The notes under the pieces are model-generated. The model searched no databases, was not told where the DNA came from, and saw only the letters and a list, made by a program, of their open reading frames with translations. Of a DNA stretch of 64,000 nt, positions 2,961 through 23,018 are shown piece by piece. This stretch comes from a virus (taxonomy: Duplodnaviria; Heunggongvirae; Uroviricota; Caudoviricetes), in IMG/VR virus record IMGVR_UViG_3300026488_000246, positions 83,463 to 147,462 of that record; one strand, written 5' to 3'. Position 1 is the first letter of the stretch. Each line of letters begins with the position of its first letter. The translations under genes were made by a program, and so were the position numbers.

Positions 2961-4418
2961 ATGCAACTAACTAAAGAGCAACAAACGGTGGTTGATACTG
3001 TTGGAAACTTAGACTCTCACTTAGTTATCAATGCTTATGCAGGTACAGGTAAAACTACAACACTAGTAGCTATCGCTGAAAGTTATCCACAATACAGATT
3101 TCTTTATCTTGCTTATAACAGATCTGTTAAAGAAGAAGCTGAAGCTAGATTTCCTTCTAATGTAAAAGTATTAACAACACATGGTTTAGGATATAGATGG
3201 TACATAACTCATGTAGGGAAACCAAACTTAGGATACAATATAAGACCTTATACTCTTTGTGAATTGTATGATATTGATTATAAATCAGCATATTATGCAA
3301 CACGAATTTTCCATGAATATTGCAATAGCATTGATAAAGATATGCATACTATAGCAAAACAAATAGCTTATAGTGCTACTGATGATAAGGATTATATTTA
3401 TCGAGGAAGAGATGCAGCTTTACTTTTATGGAAGGATATGAAAGATAGAGTTGTAGAGATTACACATGATTTCTATCTTAAACTAGCATCAGAATCTGAT
3501 TGTAGTGAATTGTTAACTGGTTATGATTTTATTTTGCTAGATGAAGCACAAGATACTAATCCTGTTGTATTTAAGATATTACTGAATTCTGGTAAGCCTA
3601 TCATTGCTGTTGGAGATATTCATCAGAAGATTTATGGTTTCAGAAATGCTATGGATGTAATGAGTAAACTTCATGATAAGCATGGTGCTAAACTACTCTA
3701 TCTAACTGAAAGTTTTAGATTTCCACAGGAAATTGCAAACTTAGCTTATGAATGGCTTAAACTTAAACCAAACTTCAATCCAAAAATTTATCCTGAAATT
3801 AAAGGGTTAGGTCCAAAAGATCCAAGAGCAAAATCAGAAGCTTACATTACAAGGACTAATCCAGGAATTGTTGAGAAAATAGCTTCTGTTGATCCTAAGA
3901 AGGATTTTTATTCGTATAGAACTCCATCAGAAATTTTTGCACTACCTATGGTAATTGCTAAGCATTTCAATGGATATGTACCTCCTATAAAGCTTCCAGA
4001 AAATCTTGAAAAATTTGTATCAAAATTTGATACATTAGGTGACCTCTTTAAATATGCAAAAGATGCTAATGATATTGAAGTTAAGAAATCAATCGAGATT
4101 GTTGAAAAGTATGGTCATAGATTAACTGAACTATACAAATTACTAAAATCAAAAAATAGAAAGAAAAAGGGACTTTGTATATTAACAGCTCATACATCAA
4201 AAGGACTGGAATTTGGTACAGTTACATTAGGTGGAGATTGGGAATGGAAAACACAGAAAAATAGCCAACAAGAAATAGAAGAATATAATCTTATGTATGT
4301 TGCAATAACAAGAGCCATCCATACTCTGTATCCAAATGAAATAGTAAAAGATAAACTGAAACTTGGGAATGATTTCTACATAACAAGAAAAGCTTTATCT
4401 GTTGAAGAAATTTTCTAG
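2961..4418 (+). CDS. SF1 DNA helicase, UvrD/PcrA-like
   Basis: Motif I AYAGTGKTT, motif II LLDEAQD, C-terminal TAHTSKGLEFGTV. Confidence 0.65.
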   Translation: MQLTKEQQTVVDTVGNLDSHLVINAYAGTGKTTTLVAIAESYPQYRFLYLAYNRSVKEEAEARFPSNVKVLTTHGLGYRWYITHVGKPNLGYNIRPYTLCELYDIDYKSAYYATRIFHEYCNSIDKDMHTIAKQIAYSATDDKDYIYRGRDAALLLWKDMKDRVVEITHDFYLKLASESDCSELLTGYDFILLDEAQDTNPVVFKILLNSGKPIIAVGDIHQKIYGFRNAMDVMSKLHDKHGAKLLYLTESFRFPQEIANLAYEWLKLKPNFNPKIYPEIKGLGPKDPRAKSEAYITRTNPGIVEKIASVDPKKDFYSYRTPSEIFALPMVIAKHFNGYVPPIKLPENLEKFVSKFDTLGDLFKYAKDANDIEVKKSIEIVEKYGHRLTELYKLLKSKNRKKKGLCILTAHTSKGLEFGTVTLGGDWEWKTQKNSQQEIEEYNLMYVAITRAIHTLYPNEIVKDKLKLGNDFYITRKALSVEEIF

Positions 4419-4461: not shown

Positions 4462-4521
4462 ATTCTTAGTGGGTCGTTGTTGACCCGCTGTTTAAAAAAC
4501 TTTCAAGAAATGAGGTAGGAC

Positions 4522-5220
4522 ATGCTGAAACCCAAGACATGCAAAACCAAGATCAAATTTATCGCTCCAATTCTTGGATCTGCACCACCAACACCAGATA
4601 TTTATGAAAGGTATCTCAGGAAGAAACTTGAGAAGGAGATCGAAAAGATTGAAAAGAGATTACAAAAGAAACCAGATCCTATGCTACAAGAGAAACTTGA
4701 ATCATTACGAGAAGAATATGAAAGGATACCAATACTCGCGGAGATCGAACCACATGAAGAGAAGCTTACAATATTCTACAGAGATGAAAACAACTATCCA
4801 GTCATCAGAGCACATCAGGTGCTTGGATTTCTCAAAGAAGTTGGCAATGCATTTAAAGATAAGATAGGTATCAAGAATCTTAGACAGAAGATAAACTACT
4901 ATGTAGCTGTTAGACCTATTGAGATTCCACTTTTCAGAGATGAGGATCTTACAGAGCGAATAGCAAAACCTGATGAACTTTTTGAGAGACCGCTCAGAGC
5001 TCAAACTTCTCAGGGACCAAGATCTAGTATAGCTAAGTCTGAAAAGCTTGATCCTCCTGTATATGCAGAATTTGAAATCCATATACTTCCCAATAAGCAA
5101 GGAGTTAATGAAAAACTCATTAAGCAATTACTAGATCTTGGAGTTTACAGAGGGATCTCTCAATGGTCTAATAGTAACTACTATGGAACATTTGAAGTTG
5201 TAGAATTCAAATGTGAGTAA
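4522..5220 (+). CDS. hypothetical protein
   Basis: 232-aa ORF with RBS GAGGTAGG. Confidence 0.7.
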   Translation: MLKPKTCKTKIKFIAPILGSAPPTPDIYERYLRKKLEKEIEKIEKRLQKKPDPMLQEKLESLREEYERIPILAEIEPHEEKLTIFYRDENNYPVIRAHQVLGFLKEVGNAFKDKIGIKNLRQKINYYVAVRPIEIPLFRDEDLTERIAKPDELFERPLRAQTSQGPRSSIAKSEKLDPPVYAEFEIHILPNKQGVNEKLIKQLLDLGVYRGISQWSNSNYYGTFEVVEFKCE

Positions 5221-6102
5221 TGGGAAAGTCCTGCCTAGTACTGTGAAGGTTAAGCGTTGTATTGTGAGGTTAAGGTGGCGTCCCGTTCCGCAGAGGTTAA
5301 GTGTCGTATTGTCAGGGTCCCGTAGCGTCCCGTTCCGTAAAGGTATAGTTAGGCACAGTTAGGTTAGGGTTTTGTGAGGTTCTGTTACGTGAAGATTCTG
5401 TTGAGGTAACGTGTAGTTTGGTGAGGTGCTGGTTCTGTGCCGTGCTGTACTATTGAGGTTTTGTATCCATTAACATAAACATCTAAGAACTCTCTTATGA
5501 ACCAAATTAAAGGAGGAATTATGAAACCTACATGAAGCATTTACATTAAGAAAATCATAGTTGCAGTTAAACTATAAGAACCAACTCTCTGCAGTCAGGA
5601 GAGTTGGTTATCAGTTACTAAATCAAATGAAACTTTCAGAAGCAATTGAATTTAAGAAACTTAAAGACTACATAGCCAACCCAGGCAAGTTCTTTACAGA
5701 ACTTGTCAGGTTGGTAAAGAGCAGTTACCGCGTACCTGCATTCCAGAACTTCATGTTTTCTAATTGAATTTCTGGTTTAAGGTACGCATTGTATCGTCTC
5801 GTAGTGGTATCGTTTGGTCTGGTGCAGGTATTGTATAGTTTGGTGTTGTGTAGGTGGAGTCATGTTTAGCAATAGTTATGCGGTGTTTGGTGATGTGTAG
5901 GTGGCGTCATGTTTAGCAATGGTAATGCGGTGTTTGGTGACGTCATGGTGACGTATTGTTTCGTTATGTAGAGGTGTTGTACTGTTGTGGTTATGTCCTG
6001 TACTGTTGTGGTTGTGTTCTGTTGCGTACTGTTTCTGGGTCCTTGGAGCTAATCGTGGTTCCAAGGACCTCTCCTTTCACAACAAAAAAAGGAGGTAGAA
6101 AC
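5221..6102 (+). repeat. G+T-skewed, GC-elevated noncoding repeat island with two 47-bp tandem duplications
   Basis: First 47-bp tandem pair at 5247-5293 / 5294-5340 (AGGTTAAG.GT.GTATTGT.AGG...GCGTCCCGTTCCG). Second 47-bp tandem pair at 5848-5894 / 5895-5941. GTACTGTTGTGGTT occurs twice. Hairpins at 5578-5608 and 6038-6069. Almost no A-runs, in a genome that is otherwise AT-rich. Confidence 0.6.
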
Positions 6103-7164
6103 ATGGAGAACCTTATTCGCACTAAACCAATTATCAAACTCAGAAAGCTTGGTAACTACTACAAAGCATTTTTTGATTCATCAAAAGCTTTAACACTCAG
6201 AGATTTAGATGAGAATGTAATCTGGAAGGAAGAAGTAGTTCCAGAGTTGCTTGATATATCTATTACTAAGAAGTGTAATTTCAAATGTCCATATTGCTAT
6301 CAATCTGCAGGTGAAGGAATGCATATGACTATGGAAGATTTTGAATGGTTACTAGATTTTATGGGAGAAGATAAGCCTTTTCAAGTAGCACTTGGAGGTG
6401 GAGAAGTTATATGCAATCCTTGGTTTAAAGAAATGCTTAAGAAATGGTACGAGAATGGTGTAGTACCAAACTATACAACCAATGGTTATACTCTTCTTGA
6501 TGAAGATGCTGTTAAAGCCACAATCAAATATTGTGGAGGAGTAGCATTAACTTATCACTGGCATGATTTATCATTGTTTAAACAAGCTTTAGAAGTACTT
6601 ACTAAACTCCCAATTCAAAGAAACATTCACCTTATTGTTGGTAAACCACATGTAAATAAGCTTGAATCTGTTATTGAAGAACTCAAGGACAAAGTTGATG
6701 CTATAGTACTTTTGGAGTTCCATGACATAGGAAGAGGTAATCAATTCAAAGATTGGAAACTAAGCAGAGAAGATAAGGATCATATTAAGAAGCTTCTTCT
6801 AAAATATGGAAAACAAGGTAAACTTGCTGTAGGAGCCTCTCTAATTCCATTAGCAATTGAAACTGTTGTGGAGGATGGAGCTGATAAAACTTTCGTTGAG
6901 CAATTCTATTACAACCCTGAAAGTCTTCTTACTGGGTATGTAAATGAGCAATTACAATTAGCACCATCTTCTTTCTGGACAGGTGAAAAGATTGATCTTA
7001 AACAATTTAAATCTTTCAGAGAAGCTTACAATAGTCCTTTGATGAAAGAATTAAGGAAGAAACAATATGAATTAAGAAAGATATGTGATTATGCTTATAT
7101 ATGTAATGGTGGTATGCATGCTGATTGTTGTAAAGATTGTAGATTGAAGAAGGCTTTGGTTTAA
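6103..7164 (+). CDS. radical SAM enzyme with C-terminal Cys cluster (SPASM/twitch-like peptide-modifying type)
   Basis: RBS AAAGGAGG. CxxxCxxC motif (CNFKCPYC). GGGEV motif. C-terminal CDYAYICNGGMHADCCKDC. Confidence 0.75.
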   Translation: MENLIRTKPIIKLRKLGNYYKAFFDSSKALTLRDLDENVIWKEEVVPELLDISITKKCNFKCPYCYQSAGEGMHMTMEDFEWLLDFMGEDKPFQVALGGGEVICNPWFKEMLKKWYENGVVPNYTTNGYTLLDEDAVKATIKYCGGVALTYHWHDLSLFKQALEVLTKLPIQRNIHLIVGKPHVNKLESVIEELKDKVDAIVLLEFHDIGRGNQFKDWKLSREDKDHIKKLLLKYGKQGKLAVGASLIPLAIETVVEDGADKTFVEQFYYNPESLLTGYVNEQLQLAPSSFWTGEKIDLKQFKSFREAYNSPLMKELRKKQYELRKICDYAYICNGGMHADCCKDCRLKKALV

Positions 7165-7214: not shown

Positions 7215-7267
7215 TAGTAACTAACCATATAATTGTATACAACTATATTACAAAATGAAACGCTTCC
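7215..7267 (+). promoter_or_regulatory. conserved intergenic cassette A (TAGTAACTAACCATATAATTGTATACAACTATATTACAAAATGAAACGCTTCC)
   Basis: Six copies in the window (7215, 7621, 8014, 41907, 43207, 55774). Each ends 10-20 nt upstream of a start codon. Confidence 0.55.
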
Positions 7268-7286
7268 TCAGTTTCTTGGAGGAAAC

Positions 7287-7640
7287 ATGGTTTCTTTTCT
7301 ACATCCATCGAGTATAACTGCTTCAGCTCTAGTATGTGCTACTTTTAGAAAAGTTAAACCAGCTAAGACTAAATCGATAACGTTTCTTAGTATTAGCTTT
7401 GATGATCTAATACAACATTTAGAATTACATGCAGAAGAAACATATTGTCGTTCATCAGGTGTAAAGCTCTCGATACAAACAAATGGAAATCCATCTAGAT
7501 TAATTGCAGAATTAATAGCACCAAAAATGGATGAGGAGTATGTAAGTCGACGAGAATCACTACAAAGGGAACTTGAATTGCTTGGTTACACAATTGTAGA
7601 TGGGTTCAGCATGAAACAGTTAGACCTAACCTTATTGTAA
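7287..7640 (+). CDS. small protein, divergent member of the TNSS N-motif family (paralog of 7681..8016)
   Basis: RBS GGAGG. Shares VRPAKTK...ISF.ELIQ.LELHAEE...RESLQ.ELELLG with the next gene. N-terminus SFLHPSSITAS. Confidence 0.6.
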   Translation: MVSFLHPSSITASALVCATFRKVKPAKTKSITFLSISFDDLIQHLELHAEETYCRSSGVKLSIQTNGNPSRLIAELIAPKMDEEYVSRRESLQRELELLGYTIVDGFSMKQLDLTLL

Positions 7641-7680: not shown

Positions 7681-8016
7681 ATGAGATCTTTAAACTCATC
7701 ATTCATTACAAACAGTAGCACAACTGTTACTTTCGTTAGATTAAGAAGAGTTAGACCAGCTAAAACCAAAATGATAACAATGTTGAATATTTCGTTTGAA
7801 GAATTAATTCAACAACATCTTGAGTTACATGCAGAGGAAGCAGTAGATGGCTTTGGTTCACAAATTATTGTTGAAACTGTAGAAGAACCAAGATTACTTG
7901 CTAGGCTATGCTCCACTAGTGTTTACTCTGAATATGAAGATAAACGAGAATCTTTACAAAAAGAACTAGAGCTACTTGGTTTTTCAGTGATTGATGAGGT
8001 CTCTGTTGATTGTTAG
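7681..8016 (+). CDS. small protein of the TNSS N-motif family
   Basis: N-terminus MRSLNSSFITNSSTTVTFV. Confidence 0.7.
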   Translation: MRSLNSSFITNSSTTVTFVRLRRVRPAKTKMITMLNISFEELIQQHLELHAEEAVDGFGSQIIVETVEEPRLLARLCSTSVYSEYEDKRESLQKELELLGFSVIDEVSVDC

Positions 8017-19826: not shown

Positions 19827-22800
19827 TTACTCAGTCCATAAGTCAACTTGAAATCTATCAACATAAACGTCTTTATCACCATTAATAACTAGTCTTAGAT
19901 ACCTAGCATTCTTAGATATATCTTTATAAGTCATAGTTACCCAATCTGAGTTGTAAGTGTAAGTTTGGGATTCAATTGGTTTAGTATTCTTAGGTATTAC
20001 GACCTTTGTTATTGAAGTAAGTTCTTCTTTTGTTATGATTTTGACTTCTCCAATACCTCTTCTATCGTAGTAGTAATCTACTTCATTAGGTGTAAATGAA
20101 ACTGGTTGTGGAGACCAACTTTGTGTGGTGGGTGTCCATGATTGTGTAGCAGGTGACCAACTCTGTGTAGTAGGTGCCCATGATGGTTCATTAAATGTAA
20201 ATGTATAAGAACCTACTGTTACTGAATTAGGATGATCTAAATCATTATTAAATTTAGCTATGTAGAAATTCCGATGGCTATTATGAATATCATAAACATA
20301 ACCACATACGAATATATTACCATTGGAATCAGTTGTTACACCTTGAAAAATTTCATCATTTGTACTATCAATAGTAATCTGTTTAATTAGGTTTAAATCG
20401 TTGTCAAATTTAGCTATATAGGAATCGTCATTAGAACCATTATAAGTGCGCCCGCATACGAATACATTGTTATTGGAATCTGTTGTTATTCTGTAAAGAT
20501 TATCATTTCTACTACTTTCAATAGTTATTTGCTTAATAAGATTCAAATCATTATCAAATTTTGCAACATAGAAATTATAATCTGAGGAATTGCTATAACT
20601 ATGTCCACATACAAATACATTATCATAAGAATCTGTAATTATTCCATGACAAATATCTGAATTGCCGCTATTAATTGTTATCTGTTTAATGAGATTTAAA
20701 TTGTTATCAAATTTTGCAATATAGAAATTCAAAACAGAACCATTATAAGTATCGCCACATACAAATATATTACCATTAGAATCTACAGTAATATCATAAA
20801 GATGATCAACATAACCACTATTAATAGTTATTTGTTTAATTAGGTTTAAGTCATTATCAAATTTAGCTATGTAGAAATCTTCATTAAAACCGCATACAAA
20901 TATATTACCATTGGAATCTGTAGTTATTCCATGAAATTCATCACCTTTACCACTGTCTACAACAATATGTTTAACAAGATTTAAACTGTTATCAAATTTT
21001 GTAATGTAAAATTCCAAGCGAGAATCATTATCAGCATCAACTTGCCCGCATACAAATACATTATCATTGGAGTCTACAACTATATCTAAGAACCTACTAT
21101 AAGACTTATCAATGATTATTTGCTTAGTAATGTTGAAATGATTGTCAAATTTTGCTATATATGCTTTATTATCTAAGTTCCCACATACAAATACATTATT
21201 GTTAGAATCTGTTACTATTCCGTAAAGCTGACCTTGCTTACTATCATTCCCAACCACAAAAGTTCCTAGTTCCTTCACAACTTCAACTTTTGATACTTCC
21301 TTATCTTCATCATTAACCTTTATAACATCTCCAGATCTTACTAAATCCTTATCTAGTTCTTTAACGACTACATAATTGTTTCCAGTTTTGATTATCTGAG
21401 AAGTAACATCTAAATCTTTCCAAGTACATCTCTCATAAACATCTTCAAATGCAAATTCTACTCTTATGCTATTTTCTTTGTATATATCTGATGGTGGATT
21501 TTTGAGATTAAGAGAAGATATATCAACTTTATAGACATTTTCCTTAACTGTGTAAGAACCTTTATCCCAAGTATAAGATACTTCTGTTGGAGCCCAAGAT
21601 TGAGTAGTAGGAGACCAACTTTGAGTTGTTGGTGCCCATGATTGTGTAGTAGGTAACCAAATTTGATCAGTTGTAGTCAAATCCGGTTCAGTAAATAAAA
21701 ATGAATAAGACCCAACTGTTATTGAACTTGGATGATCAAGGTTATTGTTAAATTTAGCTACAAAGAAATCATAATTAGAACTGTCTCCTATATATCCACA
21801 TACAAATATATCACCAGTAGAGTCTATAACTATATCTCTTGGTATATCATGTTTTCCACTATTTATTTGAATCTGCCTGATTAAATTCAAATTGCTATCA
21901 AATTTAGCTATGTAAAAGTCTTTATTAGAACCATTATCAATACTACCGCATGCAAAAATATTTCCTTCAGAATCAATTGTTAATCCGAGTAATTCACCTC
22001 CCATATTTTCAATGGTGGCTTGTTTAATCAAGTTCAAATCATTATCAAATTTAGCTACATAAAGTCCTCTATCATGATCATTATGAGTATGACCGCATAC
22101 AAATACATTACCATTGGAATCTGTAACTATACCAACGAGTATAGCATAAACTCTAGCGTCAATAGTTATTTGCTTAATAAGATTCAAATCATTATCAAAC
22201 TTACCTATGTAGAAATCTTGATCAGAACCATTATAAGTATATCCACATACGAATACATTTCCGTTAAAATCAATAGTTATATTGTAAAGCCAATCATTAG
22301 TGTTGTTTATAGTTATTTGCTTAATAAGATTCAAATCATTATCAAACTTACCTATGTAGAAACTGTTATTGGTATGACCACATACAAATACATTATTATT
22401 GGAATCTATTGTTATTCCAAGAAATTCTTCACTGTTACCGCCATCTACAATAACTTGTTTAACTAAATTCAAATTGTTATCGAATTTAGCTACATAGAAA
22501 TCTTCTTTAGAACCATTACGAGTATATCCACATACAAATATGTTTCCATTAGAATCCGTTGTTATTCCTTGAAGATAATCAATGTAACCGCTATCAATAG
22601 TAACTTGTTTAACCAGATTTAAGTCATTATCAAGTTTAGCTATGTAAAAATCCTGGTTGGGACCATTATTAATACAACCACATACAAATATATTACCATT
22701 GGAATCAGTTGTTATTCCATAGAGATAATCATCTTTACCGCTGTCACCAACAGCCATATAATACTCAACATTTTCAGTAGTTTCTTCAATCTTATTTACA

Positions 22801-23018
22801 ATTAATGGCTTTATATCTGAACCTTCTCTTACTAATATCTTTTGGCCAACTTCAAGCTTATCATTTTTATAGGTGAAATAATCAGTAGTTGCTTCTGTAA
22901 TTTTAACTTTAAGAGGTTTACAAGTAAGATTAACTCTTGCTCTTTTCCAATCTGGTTCGTTTGATTCTTGTTTGAAAACTTTAGAAACCCATTTTGCATT
23001 ATCTTTTAATGCTTTCAT
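19827..23018 (-). CDS. large fibre-like structural protein with duplicated beta-propeller arrays and PTTQSW hexapeptide repeats
   Basis: 1063 aa. Two blocks of about 8 NGN(I/V)FVCG repeats. Each block is followed by (A/S)PTTQSW x3-4. C-terminus YVDRFQVDLWTE is shared with 23074. Confidence 0.7.
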   Translation of the reverse strand: MKALKDNAKWVSKVFKQESNEPDWKRARVNLTCKPLKVKITEATTDYFTYKNDKLEVGQKILVREGSDIKPLIVNKIEETTENVEYYMAVGDSGKDDYLYGITTDSNGNIFVCGCINNGPNQDFYIAKLDNDLNLVKQVTIDSGYIDYLQGITTDSNGNIFVCGYTRNGSKEDFYVAKFDNNLNLVKQVIVDGGNSEEFLGITIDSNNNVFVCGHTNNSFYIGKFDNDLNLIKQITINNTNDWLYNITIDFNGNVFVCGYTYNGSDQDFYIGKFDNDLNLIKQITIDARVYAILVGIVTDSNGNVFVCGHTHNDHDRGLYVAKFDNDLNLIKQATIENMGGELLGLTIDSEGNIFACGSIDNGSNKDFYIAKFDSNLNLIRQIQINSGKHDIPRDIVIDSTGDIFVCGYIGDSSNYDFFVAKFNNNLDHPSSITVGSYSFLFTEPDLTTTDQIWLPTTQSWAPTTQSWSPTTQSWAPTEVSYTWDKGSYTVKENVYKVDISSLNLKNPPSDIYKENSIRVEFAFEDVYERCTWKDLDVTSQIIKTGNNYVVVKELDKDLVRSGDVIKVNDEDKEVSKVEVVKELGTFVVGNDSKQGQLYGIVTDSNNNVFVCGNLDNKAYIAKFDNHFNITKQIIIDKSYSRFLDIVVDSNDNVFVCGQVDADNDSRLEFYITKFDNSLNLVKHIVVDSGKGDEFHGITTDSNGNIFVCGFNEDFYIAKFDNDLNLIKQITINSGYVDHLYDITVDSNGNIFVCGDTYNGSVLNFYIAKFDNNLNLIKQITINSGNSDICHGIITDSYDNVFVCGHSYSNSSDYNFYVAKFDNDLNLIKQITIESSRNDNLYRITTDSNNNVFVCGRTYNGSNDDSYIAKFDNDLNLIKQITIDSTNDEIFQGVTTDSNGNIFVCGYVYDIHNSHRNFYIAKFNNDLDHPNSVTVGSYTFTFNEPSWAPTTQSWSPATQSWTPTTQSWSPQPVSFTPNEVDYYYDRRGIGEVKIITKEELTSITKVVIPKNTKPIESQTYTYNSDWVTMTYKDISKNARYLRLVINGDKDVYVDRFQVDLWTE

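Follow-up and report, generated by a model that had tools for sequence, protein, structure and literature searches.

Two arrays of G+T-rich pentamer repeats beside a Cas7-like gene: a probable VIPR locus in a large phage

What is the role of a long noncoding stretch, rich in G and T, that lies between two genes of an AT-rich phage? The stretch in question covers positions 5221 to 6102 of a 64,000-nucleotide piece of DNA (hereafter the window) that corresponds to positions 83,463 to 147,462 of the IMG/VR virus record IMGVR_UViG_3300026488_000246 (Caudoviricetes). It follows directly on a gene for a small protein (4522–5220, + strand) and ends at the start of a radical SAM gene. An earlier note, made from the sequence alone, took the stretch for structured noncoding RNA(s), for an origin or packaging site, or for a leader or attenuator of the radical SAM gene. 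The general category of noncoding RNA survived our analysis and these specific suggestions did not: we consider it very probable that the stretch supplies the RNA component of a large phage's VIPR (Viral Interference Programmable Repeat) system, with the upstream gene, vipr, as the source of the protein component. The locus is new, while the VIPR kind itself is known and was first described in 2026.

The stretch had been described as one 880-bp island of about 50% GC. It is in fact made of two G+T-rich blocks, at 5221–5466 (GC 48%, G+T 68%) and 5774–6035 (GC 44%, G+T 75%), with 307 bp of ordinary sequence between them (5467–5773; GC 34%, G+T 44%), and its overall GC content is 42%; the whole window has a GC content of 34% and a G+T content of 50%. 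The main feature, overlooked earlier when the repeats were read at the wrong scale, is a G-T periodicity of 5 nt. The dinucleotide GT recurs at a lag of 5 nt 26 times in the first block (block A) and 31 times in the second (block B), compared to 7.2 ± 2.3 and 11.2 ± 2.9 times in 1000 dinucleotide-preserving shuffles of each block; the shuffle maxima were 15 and 21, and the observed value was reached by none of the 1000. A periodicity score calculated per 200 nt was 25–26 in the blocks, against a window mean of 0.6 (standard deviation 1.8), and comparable GT periodicity was found nowhere else in the 64 kb on either strand. The observation is real and far beyond chance.

We parsed the blocks into units by dynamic programming. 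The steps between units were of 5 nt in 70 cases, 6 nt in 18, and 11 nt in two (at 5388 and 5446), for a mean unit length of ~5.2 nt. Parse, periodicity, and logo together define two arrays on the + strand. Array A (5227–5466) has ~44 tandem G-Y-N-N-N units with a GGY-NNN hexamer every 4–5 units, and array B (5774–6035) has ~48 tandem (G)G-Y-N-N-N units on the same scaffold. The pentamer logo of the window arrays is x-G-Y-N-N, with G2 and Y3 at 100% and Y3 being T in 86–90% of units. Because the units of the logo were anchored on G[CT], the 100% values are not independent evidence; independent support for a fixed G-Y comes from the lag-5 shuffle test and from the clade-wide mismatch rates given below. 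G2 is present in about 90 consecutive units. As structured RNA, the earlier proposal, the blocks fared poorly: they fold no better than their shuffles (z-scores of +0.9 and -0.5), Rfam returned nothing over the whole window at gathering thresholds, and a search of 5000–6300 at E ≤ 1 gave one chance-level small RNA match and no hammerhead.

The gene upstream of array A (vipr, 4522–5220, + strand) encodes a 232-residue minimal RAMP (Cas7-like) protein with an RRM core, a thumb, and a G-loop. The protein matched no family in Pfam, PHROG, NCBIfam, or PADLOC, and 54 homologs of it were found. A profile search of the PDB identified type VII Cas7 (E = 1e-3), the G-loops of Csm4 and, weakly, the entry 36pp_D, "SUSP1 Vipr protein" (E = 0.18). 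The AlphaFold model is confident (pLDDT 90, pTM 0.75), and a Foldseek search with this predicted structure recovered Cas7-family RAMPs only (E = 1e-6 to 1e-4), with Csm3, Cmr4, and type VII Cas7 as the closest structural relatives. When a profile of 53 sequences was aligned by hhalign to the Vipr of Escherichia phage SUSP1, the type II reference member of VIPR (KT454805.2, 28477–29061, minus strand), the probability was 90% and the E-value 1.5e-6 over 175 columns, at 21% identity. Motifs of the family alignment are PILGS, GFLKE, ERPLRAxTxQGPR, and G(I/L)xQWRNxGYGxF; ERPLRAxTxQGPR belongs to the beta-hairpin thumb (approximately residues 150–178), and the G-loop is GISQWSNSNYYGTF. The open reading frame (ORF) is intact in the window, with 11 of the 11 invariant family residues present. 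The protein also carries, at residues 25–67, a helical hairpin insertion of ~45 residues (KEIEKIEKRLQKK...LREEYERIP) that is common only to its closest relatives (P0122 and P0126) and that occupies the site of the SUSP1 alpha-bundle contacting the skipped target base.

According to the text of the two preprints that describe VIPR (10.64898/2026.04.26.720920, 10.64898/2026.04.26.720927), such systems consist of a phage-encoded minimal RAMP, Vipr, and of vrRNAs with 9–16 pentamer repeats in which GGY is fixed and NN hypervariable. One Vipr protomer binds each repeat with GGY flipped out, and NN pairs with double-stranded DNA (dsDNA) such that every third target base is skipped; the resulting R-loop triplex shuts down transcription in competing phages, satellites, or prophages. 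The SUSP1 repeats are transcribed and co-purify with Vipr. The same text distinguishes seven VIPR types, lists the alternative consensus repeats NNNGG, YNNNG, and NNNNG, and describes tail-capped, staggered/overlapping, ribozyme-interspersed, and single array layouts, in loci with long intergenic flanks, a phage context, and no self-targets. Accessory vap genes (vap1-6) vary between loci and are typical of them, not universal. VIPR is proposed there to be the viral source from which CRISPR RAMP effectors descend, and to offer a programmable DNA-binding platform of very small size (10.64898/2026.04.26.720920, 10.64898/2026.04.26.720927).

Of the defining VIPR features open to in silico analysis, the locus has the RAMP fold, the homology to a validated Vipr, a pentamer scaffold with fixed G-Y and variable bases flanking the gene, a phage context, and no self-target scoring above controls. 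The phage context consists of dense phage-like ORFs in the window and of genes for a family B DNA polymerase (PolB), a uracil-DNA glycosylase (UDG), an RNA ligase, and a helicase on the upstream contig. Searches for self- or local targets in the window and the fetched loci, using the published xNN pairing rule, found none above the level of shuffled guides, in agreement with the absence of self-targets reported for VIPR. As a positive control, the same parser was applied to SUSP1 (KT454805.2) and returned one upstream and three downstream vrRNAs of 12–15 units, as in the preprint. The locus shares with SUSP1 a small RAMP that has one RRM, a G-loop, and a thumb and whose homology spans the full length of the protein, a phage genome with neither cas genes nor a CRISPR array nearby, and flanks full of tandem pentanucleotides on the vipr strand in which a G and a pyrimidine are kept and the rest is hypervariable.

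By analogy with SUSP1, the gene at 4522–5220 would give rise to a small Cas7-like RAMP protein, and both G+T-rich blocks would be transcribed as vrRNA arrays from the vipr strand. One Vipr protomer would cover each repeat, gripping the flipped-out invariant G-Y (G-G-Y in hexamers) and presenting the variable bases. The protein and RNA could thereby form a helical filament whose variable bases pair discontinuously with the dsDNA of a competitor (phage, satellite, or prophage) and block its transcription. Transcription and processing of the arrays, filament formation, and DNA targeting and silencing are all steps that we infer for this locus from the published system. Array A begins 7 nt past the vipr stop codon and is, for that reason, probably co-transcribed with vipr.

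The fold of the protein also raises the question of class 1 CRISPR systems, since the Cas7 family (Csm3, Cmr4, type VII Cas7, Csf2) has the same fold with RRM helix-1, G-loop, and base-flipping thumb, and presumably the same RNA-binding mode, one protomer per short RNA segment. Unlike those systems, this locus has no repeat-spacer array, no Cas5, Cas6, Cas10, or Cas11 partner, and no adaptation genes. TRF and a repeat search detected no repeat-spacer CRISPR array in the window, and the neighbouring genes were without Cas Pfam matches. What the window holds is a pentamer scaffold with multiples of 21, 26, and 47 nt beside a single RAMP gene. The periodicity, moreover, lies here in the RNA sequence itself (5–6 nt with a fixed G-Y), whereas Cas7 imposes a free 6-nt register on an arbitrary spacer.

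The evidence that ties the repeats to the gene comes from its relatives. We found at least 556 of these in IMG/VR using an 11-sequence alignment, and fetched 80 distantly related phage loci for an array count. An array (at least nine units, starting no more than 400 nt past the stop codon of the homolog) was present in 61 of the 80 loci, and unit density was 41.9 units per kb downstream of the homolog vs. 1.15 elsewhere. With GT-only anchors, arrays were on the vipr strand in nine loci and on the opposite strand in none. A homolog of 34% identity at the end of a 184-kb contig is likewise followed by ~700 nt of GT-periodic noncoding sequence. The other neighbours of vipr in the window (the helicase, a 46-residue ORF, the radical SAM gene, and others) had counterparts in 0 of 84 vipr loci. 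The Vipr-type protein and its downstream array are the only constant partners across loci, and therefore form the conserved module. The commonest vipr neighbour in other loci is an XRE-type helix-turn-helix protein. Among isolated phages, an INPHARED DNA search found no close relatives, and tblastn gave only seven remote protein matches, in Hydrogenobaculum phage 1, an Aquificae virus, and gut phages.

The arrays are also reproducible. Array B is identical in an independent sample (L002, SRR7968109) and array A is identical in contig L105 (ERZ27262635). In L106 (SRR7968109), array A carries two changes, a C to T at one Y3 and a substitution at one N position, and in L009, where the upstream protein is 96% identical, array A has two N-position substitutions and one 47-nt unit fewer. 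The arrays are thus not an assembly artefact, because independent assemblies carry the same sequence, and strains vary only at N or Y positions and in how many copies of a unit they have. Assemblies nonetheless break in or beside the arrays, at window positions 5491 (L106), 5617 (L105), 5756 (L002), and 6041 (L001) and at the ends of L009 and L010, as expected for an internally repetitive, strain-variable array. The contig that ends at 5617 is 116 kb long; combined with the window, it puts the size of the phage genome at about 170 kb or more.

The repeats do not follow the canonical code. In the window and 35 related loci, the logo reads x-G-Y-N-N, with G at position 1 in 28–34% of the units of the window arrays and in roughly 15–55% across related loci. 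The pyrimidine tracks genome GC content, being T in the window and C in GC-rich phages. Conservation was measured on 179 alignable array pairs, which are not independent of each other. G2 was mismatched in 1.9% of comparisons and the G1 of hexamers in 3.9%, followed by Y3 (7.0%), N5 (8.6%), N4 (10.0%), x1 (10.7%), and N6 (19.3%). As x1 behaves like N4 and N5, position 1 is as free as two canonical N positions, and the clade is an instance of the preprint's alternative repeat consensus "YNNNG", not of the canonical YNNGG. In the structure of SUSP1 Vipr, as the preprint text describes it, G1 is contacted by H17 and D177, G2 by R138 and W178, and Y3 partly by R179 (10.64898/2026.04.26.720927). 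In our alignment, H17 and D177 correspond to S20 and an invariant Q214, and the tryptophan of W178 is retained at W215. The disappearance of the fixed G1 would thus coincide with a replacement of the residues predicted to read it, which fits.

The 6-nt units are not noise. When a 6-nt step has just been made, the base before the next G is also a G (window, 17 of 18 cases; clade, 436 of 510), compared to 28% of cases after a 5-nt step. Gaps between hexamers are of 4–6 units in 134 of 196 cases in the clade (14 of 15 in the window), where random placement would give a geometric distribution. The arrays read [GGY NNN][GY NNN]x3–5, with a super-period of 21 or 26 nt, and the duplications within them respect this super-period (47 nt being 26 + 21, and 21 nt being a single one). 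Recurrence of the GGY-NNN hexamer was seen at 5227–6035 in the window and downstream of vipr homologs in L011 and L013–L092. The text of the preprint, its figures apart, speaks only of "internal degeneracy" and does not mention a hexamer. The spacing of 4–6 repeats approximates one turn of the five-subunit target-bound filament, and the hexamer could be a signal that sets the register or punctuates the guides. The third variable base could pair with the target (an NNN or NNNx reading), which would make this a second noncontiguous code. That the whole clade (at least 556 IMG/VR loci) uses a recognition code with three variable bases per repeat, other than the published GGY/NN code with its 1-nt skip, is a possibility we put forward tentatively and regard as less probable than its alternative.

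The locus therefore departs from SUSP1 in several respects. The repeat here is x-G-Y-N-N and that of SUSP1 is G-G-Y-N-N; the G1 readers H17 and D177 of SUSP1 are S and Q here; a hexamer recurs every 4–6 units here, while SUSP1 is near-strictly pentameric (48 of 53 steps of 5 nt); and the arrays here are continuous, with 44 and 48 units, in contrast to SUSP1, which has a ~40-nt pseudoknot tail and a promoter for each guide. If the assignment is correct, the locus extends VIPR to a large phage from environmental metagenomes and to a very abundant, uncharacterised clade. The loss of the fixed G1 along with its readers, the hexamer per ~5 repeats, and array growth through duplication of nine-repeat (47-nt) units are relevant to the decoding of the code and to the way in which arrays without tails mark off their guides. 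On a practical level, G+T-skewed, pentamer-periodic "junk" after a small unannotated gene is worth annotating as vrRNA arrays.

Several observations count against assigning the locus to VIPR. The similarity to the validated Vipr, though full-length, is remote (21% identity; phmmer-level E of 0.18 in the PDB), and the window protein has S216 at the position of SUSP1 R179, a Y3 contact, where most clade members have R. A conserved accessory (vap) gene was not found next to vipr in 84 loci, a survey in which no vap sequences were compared. The type II architecture of 9–16 repeats with a structured 3' tail is absent: the arrays are continuous, and neither a ribozyme nor a recurring tail was found between units in the window arrays. 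This continuous, tail-less layout is compatible with the "staggered arrays" of the preprint, going by the description in its text. Exact scans of IMG/VR with four xNN windows of 10–11 units and one NNNx window of eight units gave 0 matches, and a scan of JGI metagenomes gave 11 exact matches whose flanking units and third positions agreed at chance level. Finally, the VIPR literature consists of two preprints from one laboratory.

Among the rival explanations, the one that survives best, improbable as we judge it, is that the repeat RNA is bound by Vipr for some other job, such as RNA targeting, a protein-sequestering or antitoxin-like RNA, or a decoy for host type III or type I CRISPR backbones. 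The nearest structural relatives of the protein (Csm3, Cmr4, and type VII Cas7) do sit in RNA-targeting complexes, the searches for DNA targets found none, and the three variable bases and the hexamer punctuation lie outside the tests of the preprints. The full-length homology, however, is to a Vipr for which dsDNA binding and silencing of transcription have been demonstrated, and a fixed scaffold with hypervariable N positions is expected of a programmable guide but not of an antitoxin or a sponge. The order of elements (tandem repeats, hairpin, next gene) also recalls the ToxI-ToxN layout, and both ToxI/ToxN and CptIN have tandem RNA repeats of tens of nucleotides (47 nt here) followed by a hairpin and a gene. 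ToxI repeats are near-identical structured pseudoknots that are cut by the endoribonuclease ToxN encoded downstream. The units here, in contrast, are unstructured and hypervariable, their partner is a RAMP encoded upstream, and the downstream gene encodes a radical SAM enzyme, not a ToxN-like nuclease.

A DNA-level element is less probable still. The blocks could be an iteron origin, a packaging site, or an injection-stop site, recognised in double- or single-stranded form, in which repeats of 5.2 bp phase a DNA-binding protein by half-turns. Consistent with this, the mean unit of ~5.2 nt is half a turn of DNA, the blocks adjoin a replication module (UvrD-like helicase, PolB, UDG, and RNA ligase), the homolog in L012 adjoins a Prim-Pol primase, and assemblies break in or beside the blocks. 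Such breaks, though, are expected of any internally repetitive, strain-variable array, and across the 80 loci the sole constant partner, whatever the module around it, is a RAMP gene located upstream on the same strand. The fold of that partner is the RNA-binding Cas7 fold, not that of an initiator or a terminase, and the homologous SUSP1 repeats are transcribed and co-purify with Vipr. The origin or packaging site proposed earlier would also leave unexplained the strand- and position-specific conservation (G2 mismatched in 1.9% vs. ~10% at three N positions) and the obligatory Cas7-like partner.

We give very little credence to the idea of a leader, attenuator, or riboswitch-like 5' untranslated region of the radical SAM gene, with the mini-ORFs of the stretch as leader peptides. 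A hairpin at 6038–6069 does lie directly before the Shine-Dalgarno (SD) sequence of that gene, and a perfect SD precedes the ORFs of four and five codons. Those mini-ORFs, however, are separated from the gene by array B and lie >550 nt upstream of it, the blocks are unstructured, and no meaningful Rfam match was obtained even with E relaxed to 1. It is the RAMP gene that the repeats accompany (61 of 80 loci), and the radical SAM gene is found in 0 of 84 vipr loci. The repeats do not accompany the radical SAM gene: its four relatives examined (45–63% identity, in L003–L008, from hydrothermal-vent and marine metagenomes) have no upstream array, and their contigs show upstream gaps of ~35–80 nt and no GT periodicity. 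A parallel of this kind, TRAP (trp RNA-binding attenuation protein), is an oligomeric protein that reads a short motif every 5–6 nt on unstructured RNA, in its case (G/U)AG-NN. TRAP is a beta-sandwich 11-mer ring whose 11 repeats attenuate a downstream operon, with no informative hypervariable bases. Its fold is unrelated to that of Vipr, and the arrays here are not linked to a downstream gene.

Equally slight is the chance that the locus is a decaying, non-functional VIPR remnant, for although S216 replaces the SUSP1 R179, the units are irregular at 5388 and 5446, and an orphan SD and mini-ORF fragments lie in the spacer, the ORF is intact with its 11 invariant residues, G2 persists through about 90 units in a row, the conservation of the locus between samples is broken at variable positions only, and the recent 47-nt duplications point to an array that is still actively evolving. 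Chi-like or RecA-preferred GT islands, minus-strand rut sites, a retron or DRT template, RiPP precursors for the SPASM enzyme, TRAP-like attenuation, and a type III toxin-antitoxin RNA were dropped in view of the RAMP partner and the clade-wide linkage.

With the VIPR assignment preferred, the remaining features of the stretch can be placed. The two 47-bp tandem pairs reported in the earlier note are real and were recovered by TRF, in array A at 5246–5344 (period 47, 2.1 copies, 78% matches) and in array B at 5838–5940 (period 47, 2.2 copies, 92% matches), the latter with a third, more diverged copy to 5966. They are not unrelated, as had been supposed: the families align at 62–70% because both are built on one scaffold. 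Each copy of the duplication in array A (5247–5340, + strand) comprises nine units, one 26-nt plus one 21-nt super-period. Of the three 47-nt tandem units in array B (5826–5966, + strand), the first two are 91–92% identical and differ at N4, N5, and x1 only, never at G2 or Y3. A tandem repeat with a 21-nt period, which equals four units or one super-period, follows in array B (5978–6022, + strand), and the two copies of GTACTGTTGTGGTT noticed before lie inside it. The recent duplications of 47-nt units indicate that the array is actively evolving. Our guess is that a 47-nt unit of nine repeats corresponds to one guide.

The inter-array spacer (5467–5773, + strand) is ordinary AT-rich sequence. 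It does contain the mini-ORFs that had been pointed out, with the SD AAAGGAGG at 5509–5516 followed by an ATG at 5521 (MKPT*, 5521–5535) and with MKHLH* at 5532–5549, and we found no evidence of function for these mini-ORFs between the arrays. An unsupported 46-residue ORF (5627–5767) had no family match and no homolog in the 84 related loci. The perfect 11-bp stem-loop was confirmed at 5579–5609 (+ strand; minimum free energy [MFE] of -18.9 kcal/mol, z-score of -4.4); it is without a U-tract and may act in processing or termination, given its place ~110 nt past the end of array A.

The second hairpin that had been noted (6038–6069, + strand) was likewise confirmed, its perfect 10-bp stem extending to 15 pairs when folded (MFE of -25.0 kcal/mol, z-score of -5.2). 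It lies 2 nt past the end of array B, with 34 nt separating it from the start codon of the radical SAM gene, and is probably a terminator or insulator (its T-tract is weak) or else caps the final vrRNA at its 3' end. The clade shows no enrichment of hairpins after arrays (median MFE of -9.2 kcal/mol vs. -13.3 in controls); as it is not a clade feature, the preferred reading of this one is a terminator or insulator of local importance, placed ahead of the radical SAM gene. At the other end of the locus, a terminator-like hairpin recognised by eye between the helicase gene and vipr (4471–4486; GGGTC-gttgtt-GACCC, then GCTGTTTAAAAAA) suggests a separate transcription unit that opens with vipr and array A.

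The genes on either side appear to be outside the VIPR system. Upstream, a UvrD-like SF1 helicase (2961–4418, + strand), with DNA helicase matches in Pfam and PHROG, belongs to the replication module with PolB, UDG, and RNA ligase. Downstream is the radical SAM/SPASM-like gene (6103–7164, + strand; Pfam PF04055). The helicase, the 46-residue ORF, and the radical SAM gene were each considered as a vap gene and found unsupported, with homologs near vipr in 0 of 84 loci. Further upstream of the locus, positions 1370–2497 of the window and 1–9897 of L105 encode a T4 Rnl1-like RNA ligase, a KTI12/AAA_33 kinase-like protein, a family B DNA polymerase, UDG, and a CTP-transferase-like protein; the set looks like an RNA-repair-type module beside the replication genes.

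The C-terminus of the radical SAM protein is Cys-rich and SPASM/twitch-like, and the protein matched models of prokaryotic viperins weakly (PADLOC pVip, E = 8e-12; NCBIfam viperin_w_prok, E = 6e-9, below cut-off). Hydrothermal-vent metagenomes are the source of its closest homologs. Two small ORFs downstream of it (7233–7640 and 7681–8016, + strand) are adjacent paralogs with no family match that share the motif VRPAKTK.IT.L.ISF..LIQ.HLELHAEE and a C-terminal RESLQ.ELELLG, and that might serve the radical SAM enzyme as substrates or partners. Elsewhere in the window, an ORF of 1063 residues (19827–23018, - strand) has 150-bp tandem repeats at 20364–20878 and 22020–22731 (2.3–3.4 copies, 71–76% matches) as well as 21/42-bp repeats at 21585–21666, and presumably encodes a repeat-domain structural or fibre protein.

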